35,868 nucleotides of DNA from a virus (taxonomy: Duplodnaviria > Heunggongvirae > Uroviricota > Caudoviricetes): IMG/VR virus record IMGVR_UViG_2609460346_000008; one strand, given 5' to 3'. The notes under the pieces are model-generated. The model saw only the letters and a program-made list of their open reading frames with translations. It was not told where the DNA came from and searched no databases. Positions 1 to 35,868 of the stretch are shown one piece after another (within the stretch, counting starts at the first letter, position 1; each line of letters begins with the position of its first letter). A program made the translations under genes and the position numbers.

Positions 1-162
1 ATGACTACTCAAAACAATAAGCATGATAGCCTGGATTACTCAGAAAAGCCCAAAAGCAAGCACATCGTGACGTTCGAGCGCGATTCCGGTAGAAAAGGAG
101 AATCGTCTTCCTCTGCCAATAAAACCACTATGCCGGCAGCCCCTGCCCCAGGGAAAAAATAA
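1..162 (+). CDS. Small ORF (53 codons) of unknown function; possibly the 3' end of a longer gene starting upstream of the window
   Basis: Open frame from base 1 to TAA at 160-162, not in the supplied track (below its size cutoff). Ser/Ala/Pro-rich tail. Convergent with the 166-798 gene. No RBS can be assessed because the window starts at the ATG. Confidence 0.2.
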   Translation: MTTQNNKHDSLDYSEKPKSKHIVTFERDSGRKGESSSSANKTTMPAAPAPGKK

Positions 163-165
163 ACA

Positions 166-798
166 TCATTCATCGTTCGTTGCACGAACGCGCCTGATCT
201 CCACTCTGGCAATCTGATCTGCTGGAATATAGGTTGCCAGAGCTCCCCAGTACTTATCAACCACGCCTTTATACTCTTCCCATTCGTTACTGCCTGAAGG
301 GCTGCTGTGCGTGACGTAAAGAACCATATCGCCTTTATTCCCCAGGGTAAACGGACCGTTAGGCCACTCTTCAAAGTTCCCTGGCAGCCGTGACATCATA
401 CCGGAACCATCGCGAAGAATCACTCTGACCTCGGTAACGCTGAAGCCTGTTTGATCAAACATTGCCTGCCATGCTGAGCTGGTATCGTCAGACCATGAAA
501 CATCATTATTCCACAGTAATCTGTACATCCATTTGCGACCGTACCTGCGCCACCACGCACCACATGTAACGGCACACAGAAGTGCTGGTGGTGTTGCCAG
601 CCAGGCATTCAGACCTGCCCACATAACAGCCTGGTAAGCCATCATTGCTGTCAGGCCAAAAATCAGCGAAGAAAAAGTCACCTCAATGGGCTTGTGGTGA
701 TCCTTCAGTCCCACATTCGCAATAAAATACCCAATATAGCCACTGGTCAGGGTCACCAGTGTTGCCCATGGCAGATTTAACAACGAAACGTCAAACAT
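166..798 (-). CDS. Hypothetical membrane protein (about 3 N-terminal TM helices plus about 120-aa soluble C-terminal domain); accessory/moron candidate
   Basis: Track ORF 166..876; preferred start is the ATG at 798 (MFDVSLL...) with GGGAGA 4 nt upstream. Hydrophobic segments LVTLTSGYIGYFIANVGL and LIFGLTAMMAYQAVMWAGL...LLCAVTCGAWW. Lies downstream of the early-operon terminator. No family recognised. Confidence 0.6.
   Translation of the reverse strand: MFDVSLLNLPWATLVTLTSGYIGYFIANVGLKDHHKPIEVTFSSLIFGLTAMMAYQAVMWAGLNAWLATPPALLCAVTCGAWWRRYGRKWMYRLLWNNDVSWSDDTSSAWQAMFDQTGFSVTEVRVILRDGSGMMSRLPGNFEEWPNGPFTLGNKGDMVLYVTHSSPSGSNEWEEYKGVVDKYWGALATYIPADQIARVEIRRVRATNDE
174..190. terminator. Short hairpin (7-bp stem CGTTCGT/ACGAACG, 3-nt loop) between convergent ORFs
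   Basis: Inverted repeat read directly from sequence; no clear U-tract on either side, so terminator function is uncertain. Confidence 0.3.
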
Positions 799-835
799 AT
801 TTTCTCCCTGCATCCTGAATACTAAAGAGAGAGCA

Positions 836-867
836 TAAAAAAAGCACGGTAAGGGGTCTACCGTGCT
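836..867 (-). terminator. Rho-independent terminator of the leftward early operon
   Basis: 9-bp stem AGCACGGTA/TACCGTGCT with 7-nt loop (843-867), followed on the minus-strand transcript by a run of 7 U (plus-strand A7 at 836-842), immediately downstream of the Mor-like gene. Confidence 0.65.
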
Positions 868-912
868 TTTATACAATAAGGAGATTTTTGAAAGGGCTTT
901 AACAAGCAGGAA

Positions 913-1311
913 TTATCTGGATTTGTTAACGTCTTTCGTCTCCTCTGGCAGATCTTCATCAAACAACCTGCCCTGCATCCGATCCAGTTCTTCTTTTCTG
1001 ACCCGCTTAACCACGCTGTAGACCCACTGAAGCGAAACACCAAACTTGCGGGCCAGTTCGTGGTGGTTGCGTCCGTTAAACTCCCTGAAGATTTCCCGGT
1101 CGCGCTGACTGACCTTCCATACCATGCCCATCGGGAAATAAACGTTTTGCCCGCCCCAGACCTGCATCATTCGGTTCGCGACGGCCTGACCAATCTGGTC
1201 GGCAATTGCGGGCTCAATATCAATAATCTCGCGAACGGTCTCAGAGGTATGCTGTGCCAGCTCCACCAGGAGTTCCGGCCCTTTACTTCGAAACTGATTC
1301 AGGTCGCTCAT
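913..1311 (-). CDS. mor: Mor/C-family transcriptional activator (middle/late gene activator)
   Basis: 132 aa, C-terminal HTH-like segment ELARKFGVSLQWVYSVVKRVRKEE; last gene of the early operon directly after a GemA-like gene, as in Mu (gemA-mor). RBS GGGAG 7 nt upstream of the ATG at 1311. Confidence 0.75.
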   Translation of the reverse strand: MSDLNQFRSKGPELLVELAQHTSETVREIIDIEPAIADQIGQAVANRMMQVWGGQNVYFPMGMVWKVSQRDREIFREFNGRNHHELARKFGVSLQWVYSVVKRVRKEELDRMQGRLFDEDLPEETKDVNKSR

Positions 1312-1732
1312 GTTTTACTCCCGCAGCTCTGTGCTGCCACTTCTTCAGTTTCTCAATAACACTGCTTGCCTGTTCAGTATTGAGCCAGCGCAGGGCGCTG
1401 ATGCCCGTTTCCCGCTTGATCCACCGCGCTAATGCATTTTCTGAACGGTCACGAACAATGCCGGCAGCAGCCATTTCAAGCCATAGCGCACGAATTTTCC
1501 TGGACTGCGGATGGTTATCCAGCGGTAAACCGGAGCTGGCTTTTCTGGCTGGTTTAACGCGAAAGCCTTTCTTTTTCATGGATTCCAGCACGCAGTTTAG
1601 TTGTGTGGTATCCATTCCTTTGGTTGAGGCTTTACCGGTCAGCCCCTGTAACATCTGGCGGTAGGTGTCTTCATCCATACCCAGTTCATTACGGGCAATA
1701 TGGATAAGCTGTATCAGGCGTTTTTTCTGCAT
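1283..1732 (-). CDS. gemA: GemA-like protein (Mu gp16 family, DUF1018-like)
   Basis: 149 aa, N-terminus MQKKRLIQLIHIARNELGMDEDTYRQML typical of the GemA family; AAGGAG RBS 5 nt upstream; 3' end overlaps the mor start by 29 nt. Confidence 0.7.
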   Translation of the reverse strand: MQKKRLIQLIHIARNELGMDEDTYRQMLQGLTGKASTKGMDTTQLNCVLESMKKKGFRVKPARKASSGLPLDNHPQSRKIRALWLEMAAAGIVRDRSENALARWIKRETGISALRWLNTEQASSVIEKLKKWQHRAAGVKHERPESVSK

Positions 1733-3932: not shown

Positions 3933-4463
3933 TTACTGCACATTCTGCTCAAAAGGAATTATTGAAAAATCCTCAATATCACTTTTTATGGTAATACCGG
4001 GAATATTTTTCACGGCGTCCTTTTCATTCAGGATGGCGTCTTTATTTATTTCCTCCTTTACACGGATAAAGCGCTCAAGCCCCAGACGTCTCAGTAATTC
4101 AATAACATTATCCGCCCCACGGATACTGACTGACGGCGGACGGTTTCGCCACTGCACCTCGCCGGTGGTGAGGTTAGCGAACTTCACCTTCCCGTTGCCG
4201 GTCAGTTCATCACGGTGTGCCTCACACCATGTCTGAATACCGGACTGCAGTTCGGCCATGCGTTTTTTCAGGCTCTCGGTGAGCGGGGCATAACGTGCGG
4301 TGATGTCGCCAATGGTGTCATTCATTTCTGTTTCAGCCCTGACCAGTTCACGTTGCGCGTCACCAAGCAGTCTGATTCCCTCAATGACCTCTTCGCGTGT
4401 CCCCGGCACCCAGAGTGCTGCTGCGGCTTTGATACGTTTTGCCCCTTTTGTACTTTTTGCCAT
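3933..4463 (-). CDS. gam: Gam-like host-nuclease inhibitor (Mu Gam / Ku-like DNA-end-binding protein)
   Basis: 176 aa (Mu Gam is about 174 aa); position downstream of the transposition genes as in Mu; strong AGGAGGAG RBS. Confidence 0.75.
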   Translation of the reverse strand: MAKSTKGAKRIKAAAALWVPGTREEVIEGIRLLGDAQRELVRAETEMNDTIGDITARYAPLTESLKKRMAELQSGIQTWCEAHRDELTGNGKVKFANLTTGEVQWRNRPPSVSIRGADNVIELLRRLGLERFIRVKEEINKDAILNEKDAVKNIPGITIKSDIEDFSIIPFEQNVQ

Positions 4464-4490: not shown

Positions 4491-4760
4491 TTACCACAAA
4501 GATTCCGGCCACACGACGCGACAGCCGTGCAGTTCGAAAACGCCCTGACGGAAATGTCCCCTGTGGTCATGACCGGTATACAGATAACAGGCCTTTCCCT
4601 GCTCAAGCATGCGCATGCAATGCGCACTCCGGGAAACGCGGATGACAGGTTTGTTACCCCTGATGGTGATGCTTTGTACATCCGTGTTCGTCGCCTTAAG
4701 CGCCATAATGGCTGACTGCACTTTGCTGATTTGCTGGTTGATACCTGTGGTGGATTTCAT
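4491..4760 (-). CDS. Hypothetical early protein (89 aa)
   Basis: RBS AAGGGG 8 nt upstream of the ATG at 4760; directly downstream of the transposition ATPase gene. Confidence 0.5.
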   Translation of the reverse strand: MKSTTGINQQISKVQSAIMALKATNTDVQSITIRGNKPVIRVSRSAHCMRMLEQGKACYLYTGHDHRGHFRQGVFELHGCRVVWPESLW

Positions 4761-4762
4761 TA

Positions 4763-5929
4763 TTAAACCCCTTTGACAACGTCAGCGTTGACCTGTGGAA
4801 CCCCGATTTCAGCGGCCAGATTCATGGCGGCTATTACCAGGTTACTGACGGCCAGCGGATACAGCAGGCTGACCATATTTTTACGATGACTTCCCGGATT
4901 GCTCAGGCGGGCACGTATGGCATCCACTGCGCTGGCGTCCATAATGTCCGTCAGTTGTTTACCGGCCCGTTGCAGTTTGAACGTCAGAAACTCTTCAAGG
5001 TTATTGTCCAGAGGCAGAAGTTCGACCACCTCACAGCGCTGAACGACTTCACGGACTTCCATATTGCGTTCAGACAGTTTTGTCGCCAGTTCCGGCTGGC
5101 CAATCAGCACGATGGACAGCAGTTTTTTGAAACCGGACTCCAGCTCAAAAAAGCGTTTGAGGTGTTTCAGTGTCGGAATGGGCAGACTGTGGGCCTCCTC
5201 AATCACCAGAACGTGGCTGAACCCCGCCTGGCTGCTGTCTTTCAGGACGCGATGCAACTGGCGAAAGCGGGCGTCCTGACTGCGTCTGATGCTTTCCAGT
5301 GGTGCGATGGTACTGATAATGGCTTCGGCAATCGCTGCTGCCTTCAGGGTTTTCCCTTTCACATCGTTGTCTTCCATAGCGATGATGTATGGCTCGATAA
5401 CAATTACCGGCGCATTCTCGCGGTTGATACGTTCAGTCAGGTCGCGGCGCAGCGTGGATTTACCCGCACCGGACTCACCGATGACGGCCATAAACCCACC
5501 ATGACGGGCTGTCTGGTACAACGCCTCACGCACGTAGCGAATGTCCGGGGTGGTGAACACATCATCAGAACCCTGCATGGCTTCATCGGCGAACGGGTCA
5601 CGGAAAAGACCAAACGCTTTTTTGGTTGCTGGAAATAACACCTGTTTTTTGAGTAACATATTCTCTTCCTCACTGAGGCTCGTTTTATCTGTGGTACCCG
5701 CTGTACGGGGCGTGGCTGCGCCCTGTACAGCATCAAAACTCTTCGTTGTATCAATCCCCTGACTTTCCAGCCAGGACGCAAGACGCCGGCGCACTTCTCC
5801 GGGGCTGGTGCGGGGCCACGCGTTATGATTCACAATCTGGGCCAGCGTGGCCTCAGAAACATCGACAGCTCTCGCCACCACCGCCTGTGGGATACGGGCC
5901 TCTTTCAGTTGCTGCTTCAGTACCAGCAT
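4763..5929 (-). CDS. Transposition ATPase (AAA+; functional analogue of MuB, ExeA/TniB-like)
   Basis: Walker A GESGAGKST and Walker B VLVIEEAH; N-terminal HTH-like region; preferred start is the ATG at 5929 with GAGGAGG RBS 5 nt upstream (track ORF extends to 5968); immediately downstream of the DDE transposase. Confidence 0.8.
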   Translation of the reverse strand: MLVLKQQLKEARIPQAVVARAVDVSEATLAQIVNHNAWPRTSPGEVRRRLASWLESQGIDTTKSFDAVQGAATPRTAGTTDKTSLSEEENMLLKKQVLFPATKKAFGLFRDPFADEAMQGSDDVFTTPDIRYVREALYQTARHGGFMAVIGESGAGKSTLRRDLTERINRENAPVIVIEPYIIAMEDNDVKGKTLKAAAIAEAIISTIAPLESIRRSQDARFRQLHRVLKDSSQAGFSHVLVIEEAHSLPIPTLKHLKRFFELESGFKKLLSIVLIGQPELATKLSERNMEVREVVQRCEVVELLPLDNNLEEFLTFKLQRAGKQLTDIMDASAVDAIRARLSNPGSHRKNMVSLLYPLAVSNLVIAAMNLAAEIGVPQVNADVVKGV

Positions 5930-5939
5930 GTTTTCCTCC

Positions 5940-7709
5940 TCAGTTGCCGTTAACAATGCTGATAACACTGCTGCGTGCCGGCGTGGTCAGCGTGGCCATG
6001 ACTTCATCCAGTGCAGCTTCCGGTACGCCGTCCGGGTACTGTGCCGTTAACTGGCGGTAATGTTCCGGCGTCCAGGTAAGGCCGTCGGCGCTGAACTTAT
6101 CGCGCAGGGCTTTCGCGGCCTCCACATGAGTCATGGGACGCTGTTCAGTGCGCGGTCCGCGTACGTCAGAGGCCTGGCCTCGCTTCGGCAGGTAGGCCGG
6201 AAGTGTGGTGTCGTCGATATGTTTATACGGGTCAAGCCGCCCGCCGAACGGCAGCGCCTTCGCCTTGCGTGCGGCAGCTGCATCTGCGGCGTTGTCTGTA
6301 CCGGTGACCAGCGCTTCGGTTTCTTTTGCCGCCATCTGCGCCGGGGTTTCCGGCAGGGCTTTGTAACTTTCGCCAAATACCGCCGCGCCTTCAGCAAAGC
6401 CAAACTCGTTCTTTCTGACCTCTTCGACCAGGAAGAACGTCTCGTGGCCGTCCTCACCGGTCAGAACCACCTGTGCCACATCGCTGCGCCACGGGTTACG
6501 GGTAATCATCAGTTTTTCACCAACCAGTACGCCCGGTACCGTTGATACGTCAAATTCAGTGCCCCGGAACGAGACACGAAGTTTTGGCGTGACTTTGCGG
6601 AGTTCTGGTGCCGCCACAGCCAGTTCACGACATACCTCAACGGAAGGCGCTTTTTTCAGCTGCTCAGCAGTAATCTTCAGCCAGATATCCGTGCGGGTTT
6701 TACCGTGGCGGCTGTGAACAGCCGTGGCGTTAAAGTGGCTGCGCCATTTCGCGGCCAGCGCGTTGAGTTCTTCCAGACTGTGAACCGGCCGGAACTTCAG
6801 ACCCGGCTCCAGCTTGCGTTCGATAATGTCCCGCGCCTTTTCCACCTGTCCGGTGGCGCGGGCGTTATGCGGCTTGTGCGCTATCAGGTCGATGCCCAGT
6901 GAGCGGCACATGTTTTTCGTCATACCCGCGGTGTTTGCCGAGCCGGGGTCGAGATAGAGTATTTTCGGCACACCGTGCAGCACGTCTGCGCCGCCACGCT
7001 CCTGCATGGCGTTGATAAGCACAGAACACAGGTTCTCACCTGATTCCGCGCCCGTCACATACTCAACGTAAATCCAGCCGCTGGCATGGTCGGTAATCTC
7101 GTAACTCCACACGCGGTCACTGGCGATACGGGCAAGGTTAGCGGGCTTGTTCTTGTAGAACTTCGCGCTGTCCATCACCTGCAGCCCTTTATGTCCATTG
7201 CTCAGGTAGTAAAGCGTGCAGAGTGAGGCGTCAATCTGCCAGACATGATTGGGATGCAGACTGGCCACTTCGGTATGCGGCGCAGGGGCATCCAGTTGTT
7301 CCGGGTGCAGGCCATAGTTACGCAGGGCTCGGCTGATGGCATCTTCGGACAACGGGAAAAACTCACCGGTGGTTTCATCTGTTCTGCCTGCGGATATAAA
7401 GCCGTTAGCCCGCAGGGTTTCCACTGCATCCGCGATGGAATAGAGACGCTTACCGTTCTTGCGGGTGGCCTCACGCAGTGTGGCAGATATCAGCGCGGCT
7501 TCGTCGCGGGTCAGGGCGCTGCGCCCGGCATCGGCGCGTTTTTTGCGTTTATCAGTCACAGATACCTCCTTCAGCCTGCGCAGCAGAGTGGCGCGGGACA
7601 TGCCAAGTTCAGCACAGGCAGCGTCGTATATTGCACCGCGTTTACCATGCCCCGCGTCACGTGCCGCGCGGGCTGTTTCAACCAGTTTTTCAGTCAGTGC
7701 CGGGGTCAT
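5940..7709 (-). CDS. DDE transposase (integrase-core/rve fold, Mu/Tn552/TnsB-like) with N-terminal HTH
   Basis: 589 aa; catalytic triad spacing read from the translation: D in HVWQIDAS, D in YLDPGS, E in ATGQVE 36 residues after the second D (D,D-35-E). Confidence 0.85.
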   Translation of the reverse strand: MTPALTEKLVETARAARDAGHGKRGAIYDAACAELGMSRATLLRRLKEVSVTDKRKKRADAGRSALTRDEAALISATLREATRKNGKRLYSIADAVETLRANGFISAGRTDETTGEFFPLSEDAISRALRNYGLHPEQLDAPAPHTEVASLHPNHVWQIDASLCTLYYLSNGHKGLQVMDSAKFYKNKPANLARIASDRVWSYEITDHASGWIYVEYVTGAESGENLCSVLINAMQERGGADVLHGVPKILYLDPGSANTAGMTKNMCRSLGIDLIAHKPHNARATGQVEKARDIIERKLEPGLKFRPVHSLEELNALAAKWRSHFNATAVHSRHGKTRTDIWLKITAEQLKKAPSVEVCRELAVAAPELRKVTPKLRVSFRGTEFDVSTVPGVLVGEKLMITRNPWRSDVAQVVLTGEDGHETFFLVEEVRKNEFGFAEGAAVFGESYKALPETPAQMAAKETEALVTGTDNAADAAAARKAKALPFGGRLDPYKHIDDTTLPAYLPKRGQASDVRGPRTEQRPMTHVEAAKALRDKFSADGLTWTPEHYRQLTAQYPDGVPEAALDEVMATLTTPARSSVISIVNGN

Positions 7710-8972: not shown

Positions 8973-9281
8973 TTACAAACGACTACCTGAAATGACACGT
9001 TGGTTAATTTCGTTAATACGATCCTGTGCACGTGCCATCTCGTTACTGTGGGCCATGGCGATCTGCAGTAACTGGATGCCCGGTGCAAAACGTCCGTTCT
9101 CCAGTTTCAGAGCCAGCCCTTCTTCAATGAGGGTGTTGAGTGCCCGGTTGATGTTTGCCGGTGACTCGTGCAGTGCTGTCGCCAGTTCACCGTTAGAAAT
9201 ACCGTTCAGGGCATGACCGCGCAGCGCTTTGAGTACCCGGAGGATGCGACTGCCGGAGCTTGAAACATTCGTCTTACTCAT
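8973..9281 (-). CDS. Winged-helix DNA-binding protein (IclR/MarR-like HTH)
   Basis: Start at the second ATG at 9281 (MSKTNV...), which has AGAGG at proper spacing; segment ISNGELATALHESPANINRALNTLIEEGLA is HTH-like. Confidence 0.55.
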   Translation of the reverse strand: MSKTNVSSSGSRILRVLKALRGHALNGISNGELATALHESPANINRALNTLIEEGLALKLENGRFAPGIQLLQIAMAHSNEMARAQDRINEINQRVISGSRL

Positions 9282-9333: not shown

Positions 9334-9522
9334 TTAGGCCGCCTGAGCTGTTGATTTCAGTCCCAACTTCACGGCGATTTCATGGGATTTACCGTAACGG
9401 GCTTTGGTCTGCCCGTTGAGAACGCGGTATACCTCATTGCGGTTGTAGCCGTTTTCTTCTGCCCAGCGGGTGAAAGTGATCCCGCGCTGGCGGAAGAGAG
9501 CTTTGACTTGTTCTGCAGTCAT
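9334..9522 (-). CDS. Ner/Cro-like small DNA-binding regulator (first gene of the early operon)
   Basis: 62 aa, HTH-like; AAGGAG RBS 8 nt upstream; divergent from the repressor gene across an operator-containing intergenic region, as for Mu ner versus c. Confidence 0.55.
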   Translation of the reverse strand: MTAEQVKALFRQRGITFTRWAEENGYNRNEVYRVLNGQTKARYGKSHEIAVKLGLKSTAQAA

Positions 9523-9615: not shown

Positions 9616-9972
9616 ATGAGCAAAGATATAGGAGAGCGCGTTATTTCTGTGAGGAAGAAAGCAGGGTTGAACCAGAGAGAATTTGCAGCTCGTTTAGGTA
9701 TTTCTAATGGTGGTATCAGTCAGATTGAAAATGGAAAGGCGATGCCTGGAGGGGAGTTTCTGTTAAAGATGCATCAAGAGTTTAATGTTGATGTAAATTG
9801 GTTGCTCACTGGAATGAGCACAGATGGTATGACTAGAAACCAGAATCAAATTTCCCCAGAAAAACAAAAACTAATAGATACTTTTGACGACATGACACCA
9901 GACCAACAACGCTCATTTCTTGAGATTGGGCGATTCTATACTCAGCCAAAACCAGGAAAAATCGCAGGCTGA
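9616..9972 (+). CDS. Phage repressor, XRE-family HTH (c-like immunity repressor)
   Basis: 118 aa; HTH QREFAARLGISNGGISQIENGK near the N-terminus; no S24 peptidase domain; gene visibly A+T-rich relative to neighbours; weak RBS. Confidence 0.8.
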   Translation: MSKDIGERVISVRKKAGLNQREFAARLGISNGGISQIENGKAMPGGEFLLKMHQEFNVDVNWLLTGMSTDGMTRNQNQISPEKQKLIDTFDDMTPDQQRSFLEIGRFYTQPKPGKIAG

Positions 9973-10057: not shown

Positions 10058-10090
10058 ACCGGAAAGCATTGTGCTTTCCGGTTTTGTTTC
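10058..10090. terminator. Bidirectional rho-independent terminator between the repressor and methyltransferase genes
   Basis: 10-bp perfect stem ACCGGAAAGC/GCTTTCCGGT, 5-nt loop, T-rich tracts on both sides (ttggttt ... tttgtttc). Confidence 0.7.
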
Positions 10091-10853
10091 AGAAGTTGCA
10101 GATTAGCAGTTCACGGCGCGGCGTGGGTTTACCCGCCAGACTGTAGTTGATATTCACTGTCTGTATGTTCAGTCCAGTGAACACCTCGCGCATCTGCGGG
10201 ATGTCGTTCACCGAAATTATCATTTTTCCTCTGATGCACCGGGCCAGCTCTGCCAGCCGCGAGTAGTTCCCTTCAGGAAAATCCACACCATAGCCTTCCG
10301 TACCCAGGTACGGTGGGTCGCAGTAGAACAGCGTGTGCGGACGATCATAACGCTCAATGCACTGTTGCCAGTCCATGTGTTCTATGACTGTTCTGGAAAG
10401 CCGCAGGTGTGCCGCTGACAGTTCTTCTTCAATACGCAGCAGGTTGAAGCGTGGCGGGGATGTGGTGGAGGTACCGAAGCTGTGCTCTGCCACCTTGCCG
10501 CCAAACGCCTGCTTCTGAAGGTAGTAGAACCGTGCCGCACGCTGGATATCCGTCAGTGTTTCTTCCGGGGTGATCTGCAGCCATTTGTAGATCTGACGGC
10601 TGACCAGCGCCCATTTGAACTGGCGGACAAATTCTTCCAGGTGATGCTTTACCACCCGGTACAGATTCACCAGTTCACCGTTGATATCATTGATGACTTC
10701 GATCTTGCCGGGTGTCTTAAGAAAATAGAGCGCTGCTGCCCCACAAAACGGCTCCACATAACATTCATGCGCCGGAAACAGCGGCAGAATGTGTTTTGCA
10801 AGGCGGCGTTTGCCACCAATCCACGGCACGATGGGTAATGTCTGCATTTTCAT
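10089..10853 (-). CDS. dam: DNA N6-adenine methyltransferase, Dam (D12) class; orphan (no nuclease partner seen)
   Basis: Motif I FCGAAAL and motif IV DPPY (FYCDPPYLG); N-terminus PIVPWIGGKRRLA typical of the Dam family; start placed at the internal ATG at 10853 (MKMQTL...); the track ORF extends to 10943. Confidence 0.85.
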   Translation of the reverse strand: MKMQTLPIVPWIGGKRRLAKHILPLFPAHECYVEPFCGAAALYFLKTPGKIEVINDINGELVNLYRVVKHHLEEFVRQFKWALVSRQIYKWLQITPEETLTDIQRAARFYYLQKQAFGGKVAEHSFGTSTTSPPRFNLLRIEEELSAAHLRLSRTVIEHMDWQQCIERYDRPHTLFYCDPPYLGTEGYGVDFPEGNYSRLAELARCIRGKMIISVNDIPQMREVFTGLNIQTVNINYSLAGKPTPRRELLICNF

Positions 10854-10957
10854 AATCTGTAAGCCTTTTACAATTATTAAAAAATATGGCAGTCTGGTCA
10901 GGTCTCGCGAGACTGACTGAACCTTGGTCGGCTCACAGCGCATTCCTGTGGGGCGAT

Positions 10958-10989
10958 GACCAGCCCGGCTTTCGGGTGCCGGGCTGGTC
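10958..10989. terminator. Strong hairpin (12-bp perfect stem GACCAGCCCGGC/GCCGGGCTGGTC, 8-nt loop), plus-strand terminator-like
   Basis: Read from sequence; followed on the plus strand by gTTCTTTCat. Lies in the non-coding gap between dam and the 71-aa ORF. Confidence 0.45.
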
Positions 10990-11043
10990 GTTCTTTCATG
11001 ATGCGGCAGGGATGGCGGGATTTCTGTTAATGTGGTTTAGGGA

Positions 11044-11259
11044 TTATCCGGGGCGATTTTCTGACCTTATCCGGTCCAGGGCATAAGTAATACCTTCTGC
11101 AAAAACAGAAGTATCAAACTGCTTTTGTATTCCCTGAAAATGAAAAGCGGCACGACAGACACTCAGTTCTCCGCGATGTAACCGGATAATATCTTCCAGA
11201 ACATTGTTCACTGCTTCAGCACGGCGCTGATGTTCTGTTAACGTTAATCGGGGATTCAT
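11044..11259 (-). CDS. Hypothetical protein (71 aa)
   Basis: AAGGAG RBS 7 nt upstream of the ATG at 11259, but the start codon overlaps the start of the opposite-strand ORF; one of the two may be spurious. Confidence 0.35.
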   Translation of the reverse strand: MNPRLTLTEHQRRAEAVNNVLEDIIRLHRGELSVCRAAFHFQGIQKQFDTSVFAEGITYALDRIRSENRPG

Positions 11260-11260
11260 G

Positions 11261-11662
11261 ATGCACTCCTTAAATGATGATTTTTATGCACTCACCGGCA
11301 AAATATTCTGCCGATTACTGAACACGCATCCGGCACCTCAGGTTTTGATTTATTCTGGTTTTTTCGATATTCCGGACCAGGTTGATCACGACCAGAAAAA
11401 GTGCCGGTATTTTATTGATACGCTGATATGGCTTCGGGATAACAGCTATATTCGTTACTCTCAGTTGCTGGCTGTGGGAGCGGCTGATGTCGTCCTCACG
11501 GAAAAAACGCTCCGTCTGCTCAATGCCACGCCGACCCTTCTGCAGCCCCGGCCCGCACCATTTAAAGAGTCACTTCTGGATGCAGTAAAAACCGGTGAAA
11601 ATGCAGTCATCGCTGAACGCGTATCCCGGATTATGAGTTACGTGTTTAATGAACGTAAGTGA
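11261..11662 (+). CDS. Hypothetical protein (133 aa), convergent with the P-loop gene
   Basis: Open frame with coding-like codon usage; GGGGA 6 nt upstream of the ATG at 11261; 3' end overlaps the P-loop gene's 3' end by 25 bp. No family recognised. Confidence 0.4.
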   Translation: MHSLNDDFYALTGKIFCRLLNTHPAPQVLIYSGFFDIPDQVDHDQKKCRYFIDTLIWLRDNSYIRYSQLLAVGAADVVLTEKTLRLLNATPTLLQPRPAPFKESLLDAVKTGENAVIAERVSRIMSYVFNERK

Positions 11663-12366
11663 GGTTTATCCGCTGTCTGCATAATCCCGATAGCCAGTGC
11701 GAGGGGAAGTAATTCCGGGGAAGTTCTTTCAAACAGCGATTCCCATTCTCCTCTCGCCATCACTCTGTCCAGCCCGCCCTCCAGTTGCATTTCAGCAATC
11801 TTCCTGATTTCCCGGAACAACGCCGCTTTGATCTCTTCATGCTCAGCTTTATTTTCCGGTGTCAGAAGGTATTCGTCGAAGAACCGGGGAGGCTGGTTAA
11901 TCGGGATGTGTTCCTGTTTGCCGTACTTCGGAGACGAACAACATTCTGTTGGCTGACCGGTGAGTTTACGTAACTCCTTCATGAGCAGCTCCTGATCGTA
12001 AACTGTCATCAGTGCCGCAATGGTGGCATGCAGTGCATCGGGCAGTATCCAGGGTTGCCGGCCCGTGGGGCATATAACATCCAGCAGCTCATTCCTCCGA
12101 CAGATACGCTCCTCGCCGTATGACAACAGGCCCTGTCCCGTGTATTCCTCCAGCCTGATCACTGTGCCAGCCCGTGGTTTCTGCCATGTGCTCAGATCAT
12201 CCCCACTCATACGGCGCTCACCGTCCACGTCTGCGGCGTCGACAATGACGCTGTTTCCGAATTCCTGTTTCACCACTTCCTCTATCCGCGCCAATATGTA
12301 ACTTTTACCGCTGCCCACAGGACCGGACACGGTGACAGTGATGACCGGATTCAGTGTCTGCGTCAT
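11638..12366 (-). CDS. P-loop NTPase-like protein (242 aa) with uncharacterised C-terminal domain
   Basis: Walker A GPVGSGKS near the N-terminus (residues about 15-22); strong RBS GAGGAGA 7-8 nt upstream of the ATG at 12366; divergent from the lysis cassette; C-terminal about 160 aa unrecognised. Confidence 0.65.
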   Translation of the reverse strand: MTQTLNPVITVTVSGPVGSGKSYILARIEEVVKQEFGNSVIVDAADVDGERRMSGDDLSTWQKPRAGTVIRLEEYTGQGLLSYGEERICRRNELLDVICPTGRQPWILPDALHATIAALMTVYDQELLMKELRKLTGQPTECCSSPKYGKQEHIPINQPPRFFDEYLLTPENKAEHEEIKAALFREIRKIAEMQLEGGLDRVMARGEWESLFERTSPELLPLALAIGIMQTADKPHLRSLNT

Positions 12367-12428
12367 ATCGTATTCTCCTCTGTGAATAATTCATCGTTTA
12401 TCCTGCACATCCCGTATCCCCGGCTCTC

Positions 12429-12447
12429 TTAACGCGCTTTAAAATCC
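12429..12447 (+). promoter_or_regulatory. Putative late promoter element P1 (ttaacgcgcTTTAAAATCc) upstream of the lysis/head operon
   Basis: One of four copies of TTAA-N5-TTTAAWATC; its 3' end lies 49 nt upstream of the ATG at 12497. Confidence 0.4.
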
Positions 12448-12496
12448 TTCGCGCCCTGTATTTGTGATGCTGTCTCCACCAGACAAGGAGACACAC

Positions 12497-12847
12497 ATGA
12501 AAAACCTGAAAAAATTCATTCCCCCTGTTAAAAAACCTCGCCTCAGCGGCTGGCTGCTGACCTCAGTGCTGTTGCTGGGCACCATCGCTCTGGTCTCGCC
12601 ACAGCAGTTGCCTGTTGTGATCTACAAGCTGGCACTCATCACGCTGGCAGCAGTGCTGGGTTACTGGCTTGACCGTTCGCTCTTCCCCAAAGCCCGTCCC
12701 GGTCAGTACCTGAAACATGACGACAGGCTGATGGCTGATGGGCGTTTCCCGGTACAGACCGGCCTTCACCTGGTGTTTTCTGCTGCGTTAATCCGCCGTG
12801 CACTGATTGTTGCAGCGGTCTGTCTGGCTGTTGCGATGGGGCTTTAA
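12497..12847 (+). CDS. Membrane protein at the head of the lysis cassette (holin/antiholin candidate)
   Basis: Start ATG at 12497 with AAGGAG 6 nt upstream (track ORF starts at 12464); three predicted hydrophobic helices; immediately precedes the lytic transglycosylase. C-terminus is hydrophobic, which is atypical for a classical holin. Confidence 0.5.
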   Translation: MKNLKKFIPPVKKPRLSGWLLTSVLLLGTIALVSPQQLPVVIYKLALITLAAVLGYWLDRSLFPKARPGQYLKHDDRLMADGRFPVQTGLHLVFSAALIRRALIVAAVCLAVAMGL

Positions 12848-19763: not shown

Positions 19764-19826
19764 TCTGTTTTATAACCGCCTCCGGTTCACCGCATTGCTT
19801 TCCCTGTCCTTCTCCCCTGATGTTTT

Positions 19827-19845
19827 CTAAAGCAGATTAAAATCG
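19827..19845 (+). promoter_or_regulatory. Putative late promoter element P2 (ctaaagcagaTTAAAATCg) upstream of the protease/scaffold-capsid operon
   Basis: Degenerate copy of TTAA-N5-TTTAAWATC; 3' end 54 nt upstream of the ATG at 19900. Confidence 0.35.
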
Positions 19846-25722: not shown

Positions 25723-25745
25723 AGGGGCTCCGGCCCCTTCTTCTT
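25723..25745 (+). terminator. Rho-independent terminator/attenuator after the sheath-tube block
   Basis: 6-bp stem AGGGGC/GCCCCT with loop tccg (25723-25738), followed by TCTTCTT. Confidence 0.5.
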
Positions 25746-25762
25746 AATCTCCTTTAATATCC
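25744..25762 (+). promoter_or_regulatory. Putative late promoter element P3 (ttaatctccTTTAATATCc) upstream of the chaperone/tape-measure operon
   Basis: Copy of TTAA-N5-TTTAAWATC; 3' end 51 nt upstream of the ATG at 25814; a -10-like catact lies about 20 nt downstream of the motif. Confidence 0.4.
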
Positions 25763-32350: not shown

Positions 32351-32355
32351 GCTTT

Positions 32356-32374
32356 TTAAACGCCTTTAATATCA
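32356..32374 (+). promoter_or_regulatory. Putative late promoter element P4 (ttaaacgccTTTAATATCa) upstream of the W-J-I-fibre operon
   Basis: Copy of TTAA-N5-TTTAAWATC; 3' end 30 nt upstream of the ATG at 32405; a -10-like aatact lies about 20 nt downstream. Confidence 0.4.
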
Positions 32375-34419: not shown

Positions 34420-35868
34420 ATGGGAAACCTGAATGAAACAGAAAAGTGGGAAGAAAATATCTATCAACTGGAGACATCAGATCCGGTTCTGGGTGGTGCT
34501 GACGGGATATCAAATCGAGCCCCCCGGCAACTGGCAAACAGGACGAAATGGCTGAAGAAAAAAACGGAGGAAGCCGCACAGTCACTGGCTGAACACGTAC
34601 GTTCCCGTAACCACCCGGACGCGACACTGACAGCTAAGGGGTTCACCCAACTGAGCAGTGCCACCAACAGCACCTCTGAAACGCTGGCCGCCACACCAAA
34701 AGCGGTCAAGGCTGCATACGACCTGGCAGCCGGCAAGGCGCCTGCCAGCCACACTCACCCGTGGAGTCAGATAACGGGAGTGCCTGCGGCTTCACTGACG
34801 GCAAAAGGCACCGTACAACTGAGCAGCGCCACGGACAGTCAATCAGAAACTGAGGCTGCCACGCCGAAGGCTGTGAAAATCGCGTATGATCTGGCCCGGG
34901 GAAAATACACAGCCCAGGATGCAACAACGACCCGTAAAGGGATCGTACAACTGAGCAGTGCCATCAACAACACGTCTGAAACGCTGGCCGCCACACCGAA
35001 AGCGGTCAAGGCTGCATACGACCTGGCAGCCGGCAAGGCGCCTGCCAGCCACACTCACCCGTGGAGTCAGATAACGGGAGTGCCTGCGGCTTCACTGACG
35101 GCAAAAGGCACCGTACAACTGAGCAGCGCCACGGACAGTCAATCAGAAACTGAGGCTGCCACGCCGAAGGCGGTCAAGGCTGCATACGACCTTGCAGCCG
35201 GCAAGGCGCCCGTCAGCCACACTCACCCGTGGAGTCAGATAACGGGAGTGCCTGCTGCCTCGCTGACGGCAAAAGGCACCGTACAATTGAGCAGTGCCAT
35301 CAACAGCACGTCTGAAATACTGGCCGCCACACCGAAAGCGGTCAAGGCTGCATACGACCTTGCAGCCGGCAAGGCGCCCGTCAGCCACACTCACCCGTGG
35401 AGTCAGATAACGGGAGTGCCTGCTGCCTCGCTGACGGCAAAAGGCACCGTACAATTGAGCAGTGCCATCAACAGCACGTCTGAAGTGCTGGCCGCTACAC
35501 CGAAAGCTGTCAAGGCTGCATACGATCTGGCAAACGGAAAACAACCGGCAGATGCCACGCTCACTGCTCTGGCAGGACTTTCCACTGCAGCAGATCGGTT
35601 GCCTTATTTTACCGGAGCAGACCGAGCAGCGCTGGCAACCCTTACAGCTATTGGTCGCGCTATTATCGCTAAGGGCAGTATAAAAGATGTCCTCAATTAC
35701 CTTGGTTTGGGGGAAGGCTCTGCATTGCCTGTTGGTGTACCGGTTCCGTGGCCCACCGCCACACCGCCAGAAGGCTGGTTAAAGTGCGACGGGCGCGCCT
35801 TTACAAAAGAACAATATCCTGTTCTGGCCAGAGCCTACCCGACCCTCCGTCTTCCCGATTTACGCGGT
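34420..35868 (+). CDS. Tail fibre protein, 3'-truncated by the window end
   Basis: Open frame from the ATG at 34420 (GGGAG 9 nt upstream) to the last base of the window with no stop, which is why it is absent from the track; about 56-aa tail-fibre repeats (TAKGTVQLSSA...ATPKAVKAAYDLA...SHTHPWSQITGVPAASL); C-terminal visible part PVPWP...GWLKCDGRAF...YP.L...YP resembles conserved fibre segments. Confidence 0.8.
   Translation, partial: MGNLNETEKWEENIYQLETSDPVLGGADGISNRAPRQLANRTKWLKKKTEEAAQSLAEHVRSRNHPDATLTAKGFTQLSSATNSTSETLAATPKAVKAAYDLAAGKAPASHTHPWSQITGVPAASLTAKGTVQLSSATDSQSETEAATPKAVKIAYDLARGKYTAQDATTTRKGIVQLSSAINNTSETLAATPKAVKAAYDLAAGKAPASHTHPWSQITGVPAASLTAKGTVQLSSATDSQSETEAATPKAVKAAYDLAAGKAPVSHTHPWSQITGVPAASLTAKGTVQLSSAINSTSEILAATPKAVKAAYDLAAGKAPVSHTHPWSQITGVPAASLTAKGTVQLSSAINSTSEVLAATPKAVKAAYDLANGKQPADATLTALAGLSTAADRLPYFTGADRAALATLTAIGRAIIAKGSIKDVLNYLGLGEGSALPVGVPVPWPTATPPEGWLKCDGRAFTKEQYPVLARAYPTLRLPDLRG
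34620..35530 (+). repeat. Tandem repeat array (about 168-bp units) inside the tail fibre gene, including a near-identical 190-bp duplication 300 bp apart
   Basis: 34681-34871 and 34981-35171 are nearly identical (one mismatch noted); 168-bp periodicity at 35221 versus 35389; accounts for the shadow ORFs on the minus strand here. Confidence 0.85.

Follow-up and report, generated by a model that had tools for sequence, protein, structure and literature searches.

A two-gene accessory cassette encoding a membrane protein at the left end of a BcepMu-type Escherichia coli prophage

The window analysed here, a stretch of 35,868 nucleotides of viral DNA (IMG/VR record IMGVR_UViG_2609460346_000008), comprises most of a BcepMu-type transposable prophage of Escherichia coli. 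At its left-hand side, beyond the terminator that closes the early operon, lies a gene for an inner-membrane protein, which faces a small convergent open reading frame (ORF). The best explanation for this arrangement is that positions 1-907, together with about 75 bp to their left, form a mobile two-gene accessory cassette, which is inserted between the left-end transposase-binding sites and the gene of the transcription activator Mor and which may play a role in conflicts between mobile elements. The structural conclusions, namely that the cassette is phage-borne, optional and composed of two genes, are firm; the explanation as a whole, including the role, is the one we favour, albeit tentatively. 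The original prediction had described the membrane protein gene as a separate gene and had missed the convergent partner ORF at 1-162. The features of the cassette and its surroundings are:

1-162, plus strand, convergent: partner ORF of 53 amino acids (RefSeq WP_001571575.1, phrog_15726)
166-798, minus strand: gene for a 210-amino-acid inner-membrane protein (phrog_12870, function unassigned)
804-808, minus strand: Shine-Dalgarno sequence GGGAG, 5 nt upstream of the ATG at 798, as read from the sequence
837-870, minus strand: intrinsic terminator of the early operon (stem 844-866, U7 tract 843-837)
884-907: dyad TTGTTAAAGCCCTTTCAAAAAT, a candidate Mor-binding site that resembles the late-promoter boxes
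913-1311, minus strand: Mor-family transcription activator, final gene of the early operon (Pfam Mor PF08765, E 1.1e-43)
Prophage ends: left end TGATCAGACATGAGATAAATG...GTGAGATAAAT, right end ...CATTTATCGCGCGGCGCATCA

Prophage ends and occurrence of the cassette

Copies of positions 1-1400, which are either 100% or 99.8-99.9% identical, are found in three genomes, where they adjoin yegV/yegU, fliC and inaA, respectively. Alignment of the three junctions revealed that the shared sequence starts at TGATCAGACATGAGATAAATGAAGGGGGATCCGTGAGATAAAT, 196 bp to the left of window position 1. The left prophage end begins with TGATCAG..., the homology onset being TGATCAGACATGAGATAAATG, and the right end reads ...CGATAAATGCACTC... 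in strain VG38-53E1, the reverse complement of which starts with TGATGCGCCGCGCGATAAATG. Terminal repeats of the form TGAT...GATAAATG are present at both ends, and both carry TGAT and repeated GATAAAT sites. A query of 400 nt, which was built from both flanks, aligns as one 394-nt piece in the intact yegU-yegV region of 5422 of the 5426 complete E. coli genomes; the loss of 6 nt in this alignment defines an exact empty site, a 6-bp duplication and a prophage of about 38.8 kb. The duplicated target is TTTACC in yegU (NZ_CP128578.1, L001 5805 and L031 3528) and is thus 6 bp long, in contrast to the 5 bp of Mu. Hence, of the three signs by which the ends were to be recognised, terminal repeats and an empty site were found as proposed, whereas the expected 5-bp duplication turned out to be one of 6 bp. 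TG...CA ends, repeated transposase-binding sites and a short target duplication, together with insertion at three different sites, mark the element as a transposable prophage; 196 bp at its left and approximately 2.7 kb at its right lie outside the window.

These data also bear on a second possibility raised by the original prediction, according to which the left prophage end lies in 799-912 and the membrane protein gene is host DNA flanking the prophage. Since the end maps 196 bp to the left of the window and the empty yegU site does not contain the gene, this alternative is refuted. The gene moves with the prophage to at least three chromosomal sites, as do the 196 bp that precede the window, and the terminal repeats are present at both true prophage ends. 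No point in support of a host gene was found, and its probability is close to nil.

Morons of temperate, lambdoid phages are optional genes located between conserved genes. The Mor-GemA region was matched in 640 complete genomes, and positions 1-870 in only 132, even by sensitive blastn; the cassette occurs in approximately 2% of the complete E. coli genomes. In ST131 relatives, the prophage ends 162 bp after the mor stop codon, compared to 1107 bp here, and carries homologous terminal repeats with no extra gene. The cassette is also absent at the same junction from BcepMu and from PhiKM, a relative classified as Bcepmuvirus. Because these relatives end just after mor, the additional 945 bp or so are an insertion between the end repeats and mor, and the cassette is, to judge from this comparison, dispensable for the phage. 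The cassette resembles morons in its variable presence at one junction, its location at a genome end, its insulation by a terminator and the presence of one gene with its own sigma-70 promoter. It differs from them in that it is a convergent pair rather than a single promoter-gene-terminator unit, that its membrane gene has no evident promoter and that it also occurs outside phages. The moron proposed originally has stood as optional cargo; the conserved promoter of the cassette is that of the partner ORF.

In Mu-like prophages of Klebsiella, Serratia and Salmonella, the gene occupies the same slot after mor; in Serratia and in one E. coli variant, an extra small ORF lies between the two. Furthermore, the gene is located 24 nt downstream of ogr, with no terminator in between, in a P2-like element, which encodes terminase, portal, ParM and the replication protein GPA. 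In the two P2-like records (L025 and L026; Logan contigs SRR17276595_175 and SRR19215678_29), ParM/StbA is found where attachment and integrase genes would be expected, and the element is probably a phage-plasmid. Other contexts are bacterial, among them alphaproteobacterial islands with restriction, Abi and toxin-antitoxin genes. In one island, the cassette adjoins AbiEii/AbiEi and RelB/ParE; in another, the gene directly follows a type I restriction system with an AAA_13 ATPase, with HipAB nearby; a peptidase M78 gene with DUF4411 is found near a further copy; and another copy lies among SMEK, a PRTase-SLOG pair and AAA_15/21 genes, together with IS66. A small plasmid carries a copy together with a Dam-type methylase and ImmA/IrrE.

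The membrane protein and its convergent partner

The start of the membrane protein gene is not the TTG at 876 but the ATG at 798, with which the RefSeq annotation and the N-termini of 34 homologues agree. It is, as originally described, a separate gene with its own ribosome binding site (798-166, GGGAG at 808-804). In the AlphaFold model (predicted local distance difference test score, pLDDT, 84.5), the expected three N-terminal transmembrane (TM) helices correspond to residues 11-28, 37-60 and 65-97 and are followed by a beta domain at residues 119-205. The topology analysis that had been suggested as a check, based on hydropathy and the positive-inside rule, places the N-terminus outside and the C-terminus with the beta domain in the cytoplasm. 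A soluble part is indeed present, but it is not a single domain of 120 amino acids, since it consists of a basic linker of about 20 residues and a barrel of about 90 residues. The best-conserved part of the protein is the first helix, with 81% identity across the 34 homologues. The beta domain is predicted to be a small cytoplasmic barrel with an Sm/LSm-like fold: in the model, it forms a five-stranded bent beta-barrel, which superposes on Sm proteins. In contrast to Sm/LSm and Hfq barrels, the domain of the cassette protein is tethered to the membrane, and its sequence identity to them is 7-16%.

The original statement that the soluble domain belongs to no recognised family was confirmed, as searches of Pfam, NCBIfam, PADLOC and PDB sequences with the membrane protein gave no usable match. 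Homologues are 54-98% identical in Enterobacterales and 39-47% identical in alphaproteobacteria. An exhaustive profile search revealed 521 clusters among 1.84 billion representatives, nearly all of which have 200-215 amino acids and the same architecture; domain fusions were sought in these clusters, and the few longer members contain no Pfam domain. DUF6338 (PF19865), a family of membrane proteins without characterised members, is matched weakly by 19 of the 34 family members of the cassette protein over approximately residues 27-137. The bit scores of the relatives checked are 16-23, compared to a gathering threshold of 26.5, the best E-value among the 34 members is 8.5e-6, and the window protein gives no match to DUF6338 at E <= 1. 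A few relatives of the cassette protein have been named 'DUF6338 family protein' by NCBI. Apart from one uncharacterised siphovirus protein, no full-length match was obtained, and nothing relevant was found in the literature under DUF6338, the RefSeq accessions or the PHROG numbers. A distant homologue with 29% identity over 94% of the length is encoded by Synechococcus phage Ssp-JY41 (L020, record 1-744), where it is the terminal gene of a 20-kb cyanophage genome.

The fold prompts comparison with membrane effectors and channels. Cap15 of the cyclic-oligonucleotide-based anti-phage signalling system (CBASS) is an abortive-infection membrane effector with a small cytoplasmic ligand-binding barrel. 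The cassette protein shares with Cap15-type effectors the few N-terminal TM helices, the small cytoplasmic beta-barrel and the occurrence in defence islands, but there is no match in sequence or fold and no cyclase or other signal-producing partner; its partner is a disordered, proline-rich mini-protein. Neither an MS_channel signature nor a structural match of TM3 and the beta domain to MscS-type channels was detected. A holin was considered as well and rejected: the phage possesses its own holin (12464-12847), whereas the cassette gene is dispensable, is missing in relatives and is located at a distance from the lysis genes. The TM bundle resembles three-TM holins only weakly (E 0.03 and above).

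The partner protein is hydrophilic and rich in proline and serine, with an N-terminal DYSEKPK motif and the C-terminal sequence PAAPAPGKK. The stop codons of the partner ORF and the membrane gene are 3 nt apart. Of the 13 distinct loci checked, 12 contain an equivalent small ORF that converges tail-to-tail on the membrane gene, the Allosphingosinicella locus L034 being the one where no partner ORF was found; the ORFs encode 39-57 amino acids, and the gap to the membrane gene is 0-43 nt. Partners accompany the gene in the Mu-like prophages of Klebsiella, Serratia, Salmonella and the variant E. coli, in the P2-like element, at chromosomal loci of Bradyrhizobium, Rhizobium and Mesorhizobium, on two metagenomic contigs and on a Rhodobacteraceae plasmid. 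The enterobacterial partners have (D/E)YSExP(K/R) in common and usually a C-terminal PPAPxxKK, while the alphaproteobacterial ones carry one to three xYxP(K/P)T repeats and a C-terminal PxPxPKK. Homology of the partners beyond Enterobacterales is probable rather than certain. At the alphaproteobacterial loci, no conserved upstream regulator gene was found, and the small upstream ORFs are mutually unrelated.

A sigma-70 promoter of the partner ORF, TTGAAA-18-TAGAAT, is located outside the window at approximately -72 to -43 in window coordinates. This promoter, with a match of 9-10/12, or a near variant thereof, is kept in all six enterobacterial locus types at a distance of 37-44 nt from the ATG. 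Since the plus strand has no predicted terminator from 162 up to the hairpin (844-866), the partner transcript should run antisense through the whole membrane gene. In addition, an inverted repeat pairs the promoter spacer with the Shine-Dalgarno sequence of the partner (L001 5933-5941 and 5988-5996, corresponding to window positions of about -67 to -59 and -12 to -4). Across six loci, compensatory changes affect three of the nine pairs, and 90.7% of the cells are paired. Both arms are only contained in transcripts that enter from outside the element. In IS10, a fold-back protects translation of the transposase against read-in transcripts. By analogy, the sequence in the partner promoter spacer that is complementary to the Shine-Dalgarno region suggests a protection against read-in translation; it concerns a different element and a different gene, and the cassette case is based on six sequences.

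The arrangement of the pair could also be that of an addiction or toxin-antitoxin-like module, in which the membrane protein is the toxin and the constitutive partner protein or antisense RNA is the labile antidote, so that the carrier element is stabilised. The tail-to-tail pair with a gap of 0-43 nt and no terminator in between, the conserved strong promoter of the partner gene, the location beside partition genes in the P2-like phage-plasmid and the neighbouring RelB/ParE, HipAB and AbiE modules are in agreement with such a function. However, post-segregational killing offers little advantage to an integrated transposable prophage, toxicity of the membrane protein is only predicted, and convergent genes with a disordered, proline-rich antidote of about 50 amino acids match no described toxin-antitoxin type. 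We therefore consider a dedicated addiction module unlikely. Slightly more doubtful still is an undescribed two-gene pore system acting in anti-phage defence or conflict, in which the Sm-like barrels would form a ring under the membrane, comparable to Sm proteins or the MscS beta domain, below a gated pore of the three TM helices. The partner, with its xYxPxT repeats and C-terminal PxPxPKK, would attach to the barrels and hold this pore closed, and loss or titration of the partner at infection or induction would open it and collapse the membrane potential.

Terminator, Mor and expression of the membrane gene

A terminator located after the Mor-like gene, with a hairpin at 843-867 and seven U on the minus transcript, had been predicted originally and is borne out. 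The stem GCACGGTA-N7-TACCGTGC at 844-866 can be lengthened by A-U pairs to 840-870, and the hairpin is followed on the minus strand by seven T at 843-837. A pattern scan called the terminator as a 13-pair stem, and the folding of the region has a z-score of -3.3 compared to shuffled sequences. On the plus strand, TTTTAT follows the same hairpin, and the terminator may thus be bidirectional. Hairpins that differ in stem sequence but share the TTTTTTTAT tail occupy the corresponding position behind mor in the E. coli variant and in Klebsiella, and immediately behind mor in Serratia; in the Salmonella relative, the stem is similar and the tail is TTTTGCTTTTT. Conservation concerns the structure more than the sequence, and since hairpins recur at the corresponding place in relatives, the terminator is more than a chance hairpin. 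The spacing of -43 to TAGTAT (824-819) had initially hinted at a function of the hairpin as a sequence-specific dyad for Mor. As a main reading, this was rejected, as it is contradicted by the other stem sequences of Klebsiella, the E. coli variant and Serratia (that of Salmonella being similar), and no further copy is found in the window.

In the pattern scan, no minus-strand sigma-70 promoter was found upstream of the membrane gene or within 162-843. A candidate for its activation is the dyad at 884-907, which can be compared with four boxes on the plus strand. These boxes have the consensus TTcTTAA-N6-TTTAAaATC, comprise 22 bp and are followed by xAxxCT 20 nt later:

12426-12447, 19824-19845, 25741-25762 and 32353-32374, plus strand: late boxes upstream of a lysis gene and three other late-region ORFs

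The four boxes are probably the Mor-dependent late promoters of the phage and the counterpart of the four of Mu. In a search with a position weight matrix (PWM), the dyad at 884-907 is the second-best hit in the window outside the training set. In two diverged phages with the cassette, the top PWM hit of the whole 6.6-kb locus lies in the same spacer between mor and the membrane gene, while no such hit is found next to mor in the ST131 prophage lacking the cassette. The best box match outside the training set (14.8 bits) is located at 4758-4781, at the junction of the MuB-like gene and the next early ORF, and is also present in the ST131 relative (L004 7309-7330). Moreover, a plus-strand sigma-70-like match at 888-916 (TTGAAA-17-AATTAT, 9/12) overlaps the dyad and points antisense into mor; the number of such matches is at chance level.

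A precedent is phage Mu, in which the binding site of Mor consists of two 5-bp inverted repeats that flank a G/C-rich spacer, with the centre at -43.5 (PMC4390567, PMC4287176). According to the Mu annotation, the Mor-dependent promoter Pm (9163-9233) contains a predicted terminator at 9179-9200 just after mor, and is followed by E18, E19 with four TM helices, gp20 with one TM helix, and then C. The region described here has several features in common with the Mu middle operon: the Mor-family gene closes the early genes, an intrinsic terminator lies only tens of bases further on, a gene for a membrane protein begins about 46-48 bp behind the hairpin, and just upstream there is a dyad in which a G/C-rich spacer separates two short A/T-rich half-sites (PMC4390567). 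However, no sequence similarity to E18, E19 or gp20 exists and no C gene follows. The geometry differs as well: the Mor site of Mu extends into the 5' arm of the hairpin, and the transcript begins past the terminator, whereas here the dyad lies about 30 bp upstream and the predicted start is inside the hairpin. By analogy with Pm, the dyad at 884-907 suggests control of the membrane gene by Mor. With the geometry of Mu, transcription would start near 852, and transcripts lacking the 5' arm would escape termination, which is an attractive but unproven idea. Alternatively, the terminator may be read through at a low level, which would yield the transcript of the membrane gene. In both cases, this gene appears to be expressed in step with early or lytic transcription, and only the partner ORF looks constitutive.

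These observations also fit an accessory of the lytic cycle, that is, a Mor-activated middle gene comparable to Mu E18, E19 and gp20, which would, for instance, tune the timing of lysis or membrane energetics or exclude secondary infection while the burst is under way, rather than defend the lysogen. The order of mor, terminator and membrane protein gene as in Mu, the late-promoter-like dyad in the Mor-gene spacer of three diverged phages, the position in the P2-like element immediately behind ogr, which encodes a late activator, the lack of a sigma-70 promoter and the weak likeness of the TM bundle to three-TM holins all agree with it. On the other hand, the same cassette is found in chromosomal islands and on a plasmid without phage, Mor or Ogr, it is missing from about four fifths of the related E. 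coli prophages, a holin and a transglycosylase are already encoded by the phage, and the Mu middle-operon proteins are not similar in sequence. A phage-internal middle-gene function is thus the main rival: it fits the adjacency to Mor and Ogr, but not the phage-free loci, and we regard it as possible, though rather improbable.

The cassette is embedded in a genome whose early operon is on the minus strand, while the repressor, the holin, the SLT transglycosylase and the head and tail genes are on the plus strand. DDE transposase, MuB-like ATPase, Gam, GemA and Mor share one early operon, as is characteristic of transposable prophages. BcepMu has a matching layout, in which the Mor homologue gp01 is the terminal gene at the left end. 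The genes are:

1283-1732, minus strand, early operon: GemA (Pfam E 9.8e-41)
3933-4463, minus strand, early operon: Gam
4763-5968, minus strand, early operon: MuB-like ATPase of the ExeA family
5940-7709, minus strand, early operon: DDE transposase
9334-9522, minus strand, early operon: Ner-like gene
9616-9972, plus strand: repressor
12464-12847, plus strand: holin (Holin_2-3, E 1.5e-41), adjoining the SLT transglycosylase gene

A second accessory region at 10089-12366, between the repressor and the lysis genes, encodes a Dam-type (D12 class) methyltransferase on the minus strand (PADLOC MTase_II, E 9e-112) and three ORFs without a family, located at 11044-11259 (minus strand, 71 amino acids), 11258-11662 (plus strand, 134 amino acids) and 11638-12366 (minus strand, 242 amino acids, with a faint P-loop match). 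In the tail-fibre gene, at approximately 34600-35550, several near-identical direct repeats of about 240 nt each, in which GGCACCGTACAACTGAGCAG...CCGAAAGCGGTCAAGGCTGCATACGACCT recurs, were seen by eye. To the right of the window (L031 1860-3450), pieces of an alternative tail-fibre gene on the opposite strand and a recombinase-family gene resemble a Gin-type invertible host-range segment as in Mu.

Possible role and significance of the cassette

A role of the cassette in conflicts between mobile elements is favoured by its mobility between unrelated elements, its neighbours in bacterial islands and its asymmetric regulation. In the proposed mechanism, the membrane protein would serve as the effector and target the inner membrane, while its barrel would be responsible for sensing or oligomerisation. 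In the lysogen, the partner protein and/or its antisense transcript would restrain the effector, whose transcription would rise only together with early or Mor-dependent transcription, either by read-through or from a Mor-box promoter that starts inside the hairpin. The outcome might be phage exclusion or abortive infection, or a toxin-antitoxin-like function; a role of this kind is favoured by inference only.

Several points weigh against this explanation. An effector that is made only during lytic growth cannot protect the lysogen in the usual way. The association with bacterial islands is guilt by association at a handful of loci, with no statistical test. In PADLOC-DB 2.0.0, no family matched either cassette protein at E <= 1, and neither a characterised homologue of the membrane protein nor literature on it was found. 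With regard to the partner, the similarity beyond Enterobacterales is weak (in A6, only M1 is invariant), and its proline richness could partly reflect the GC-rich DNA of alphaproteobacteria. As far as a Pm-type promoter is concerned, the dyad resembles the late boxes and recurs in relatives, but its PWM score of 11-13 bits is no higher than that of the best hits in shuffled sequences, and the -10 hexamers proposed for it are weak and vary from locus to locus.

Accessory cassettes located at the end of a prophage are of a known kind; for this protein family, the partner gene and the wiring, no description was found in the literature searched. Many exclusion and defence functions come from optional genes at the ends of prophages, but this family has no described member. 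The cassette is a compact module of about 1 kb whose carriers range from Enterobacterales to rhizobia and include phages of the Mu-like and P2-like types, a small plasmid and defence islands, and its recurring layout combines a membrane protein carrying a small cytoplasmic barrel with a convergent mini-protein. At the enterobacterial loci, where regulation was examined, the promoter of the mini-protein is of a constitutive type and the effector gene is insulated by a terminator. Because the cassette is small and sister prophages that naturally lack it can serve as controls, its function is directly testable. If a role in defence or a toxin-antitoxin-like function holds true, the cassette would represent a new effector architecture and a cargo gene that is wired into the Mor/Ogr late-activation switch.

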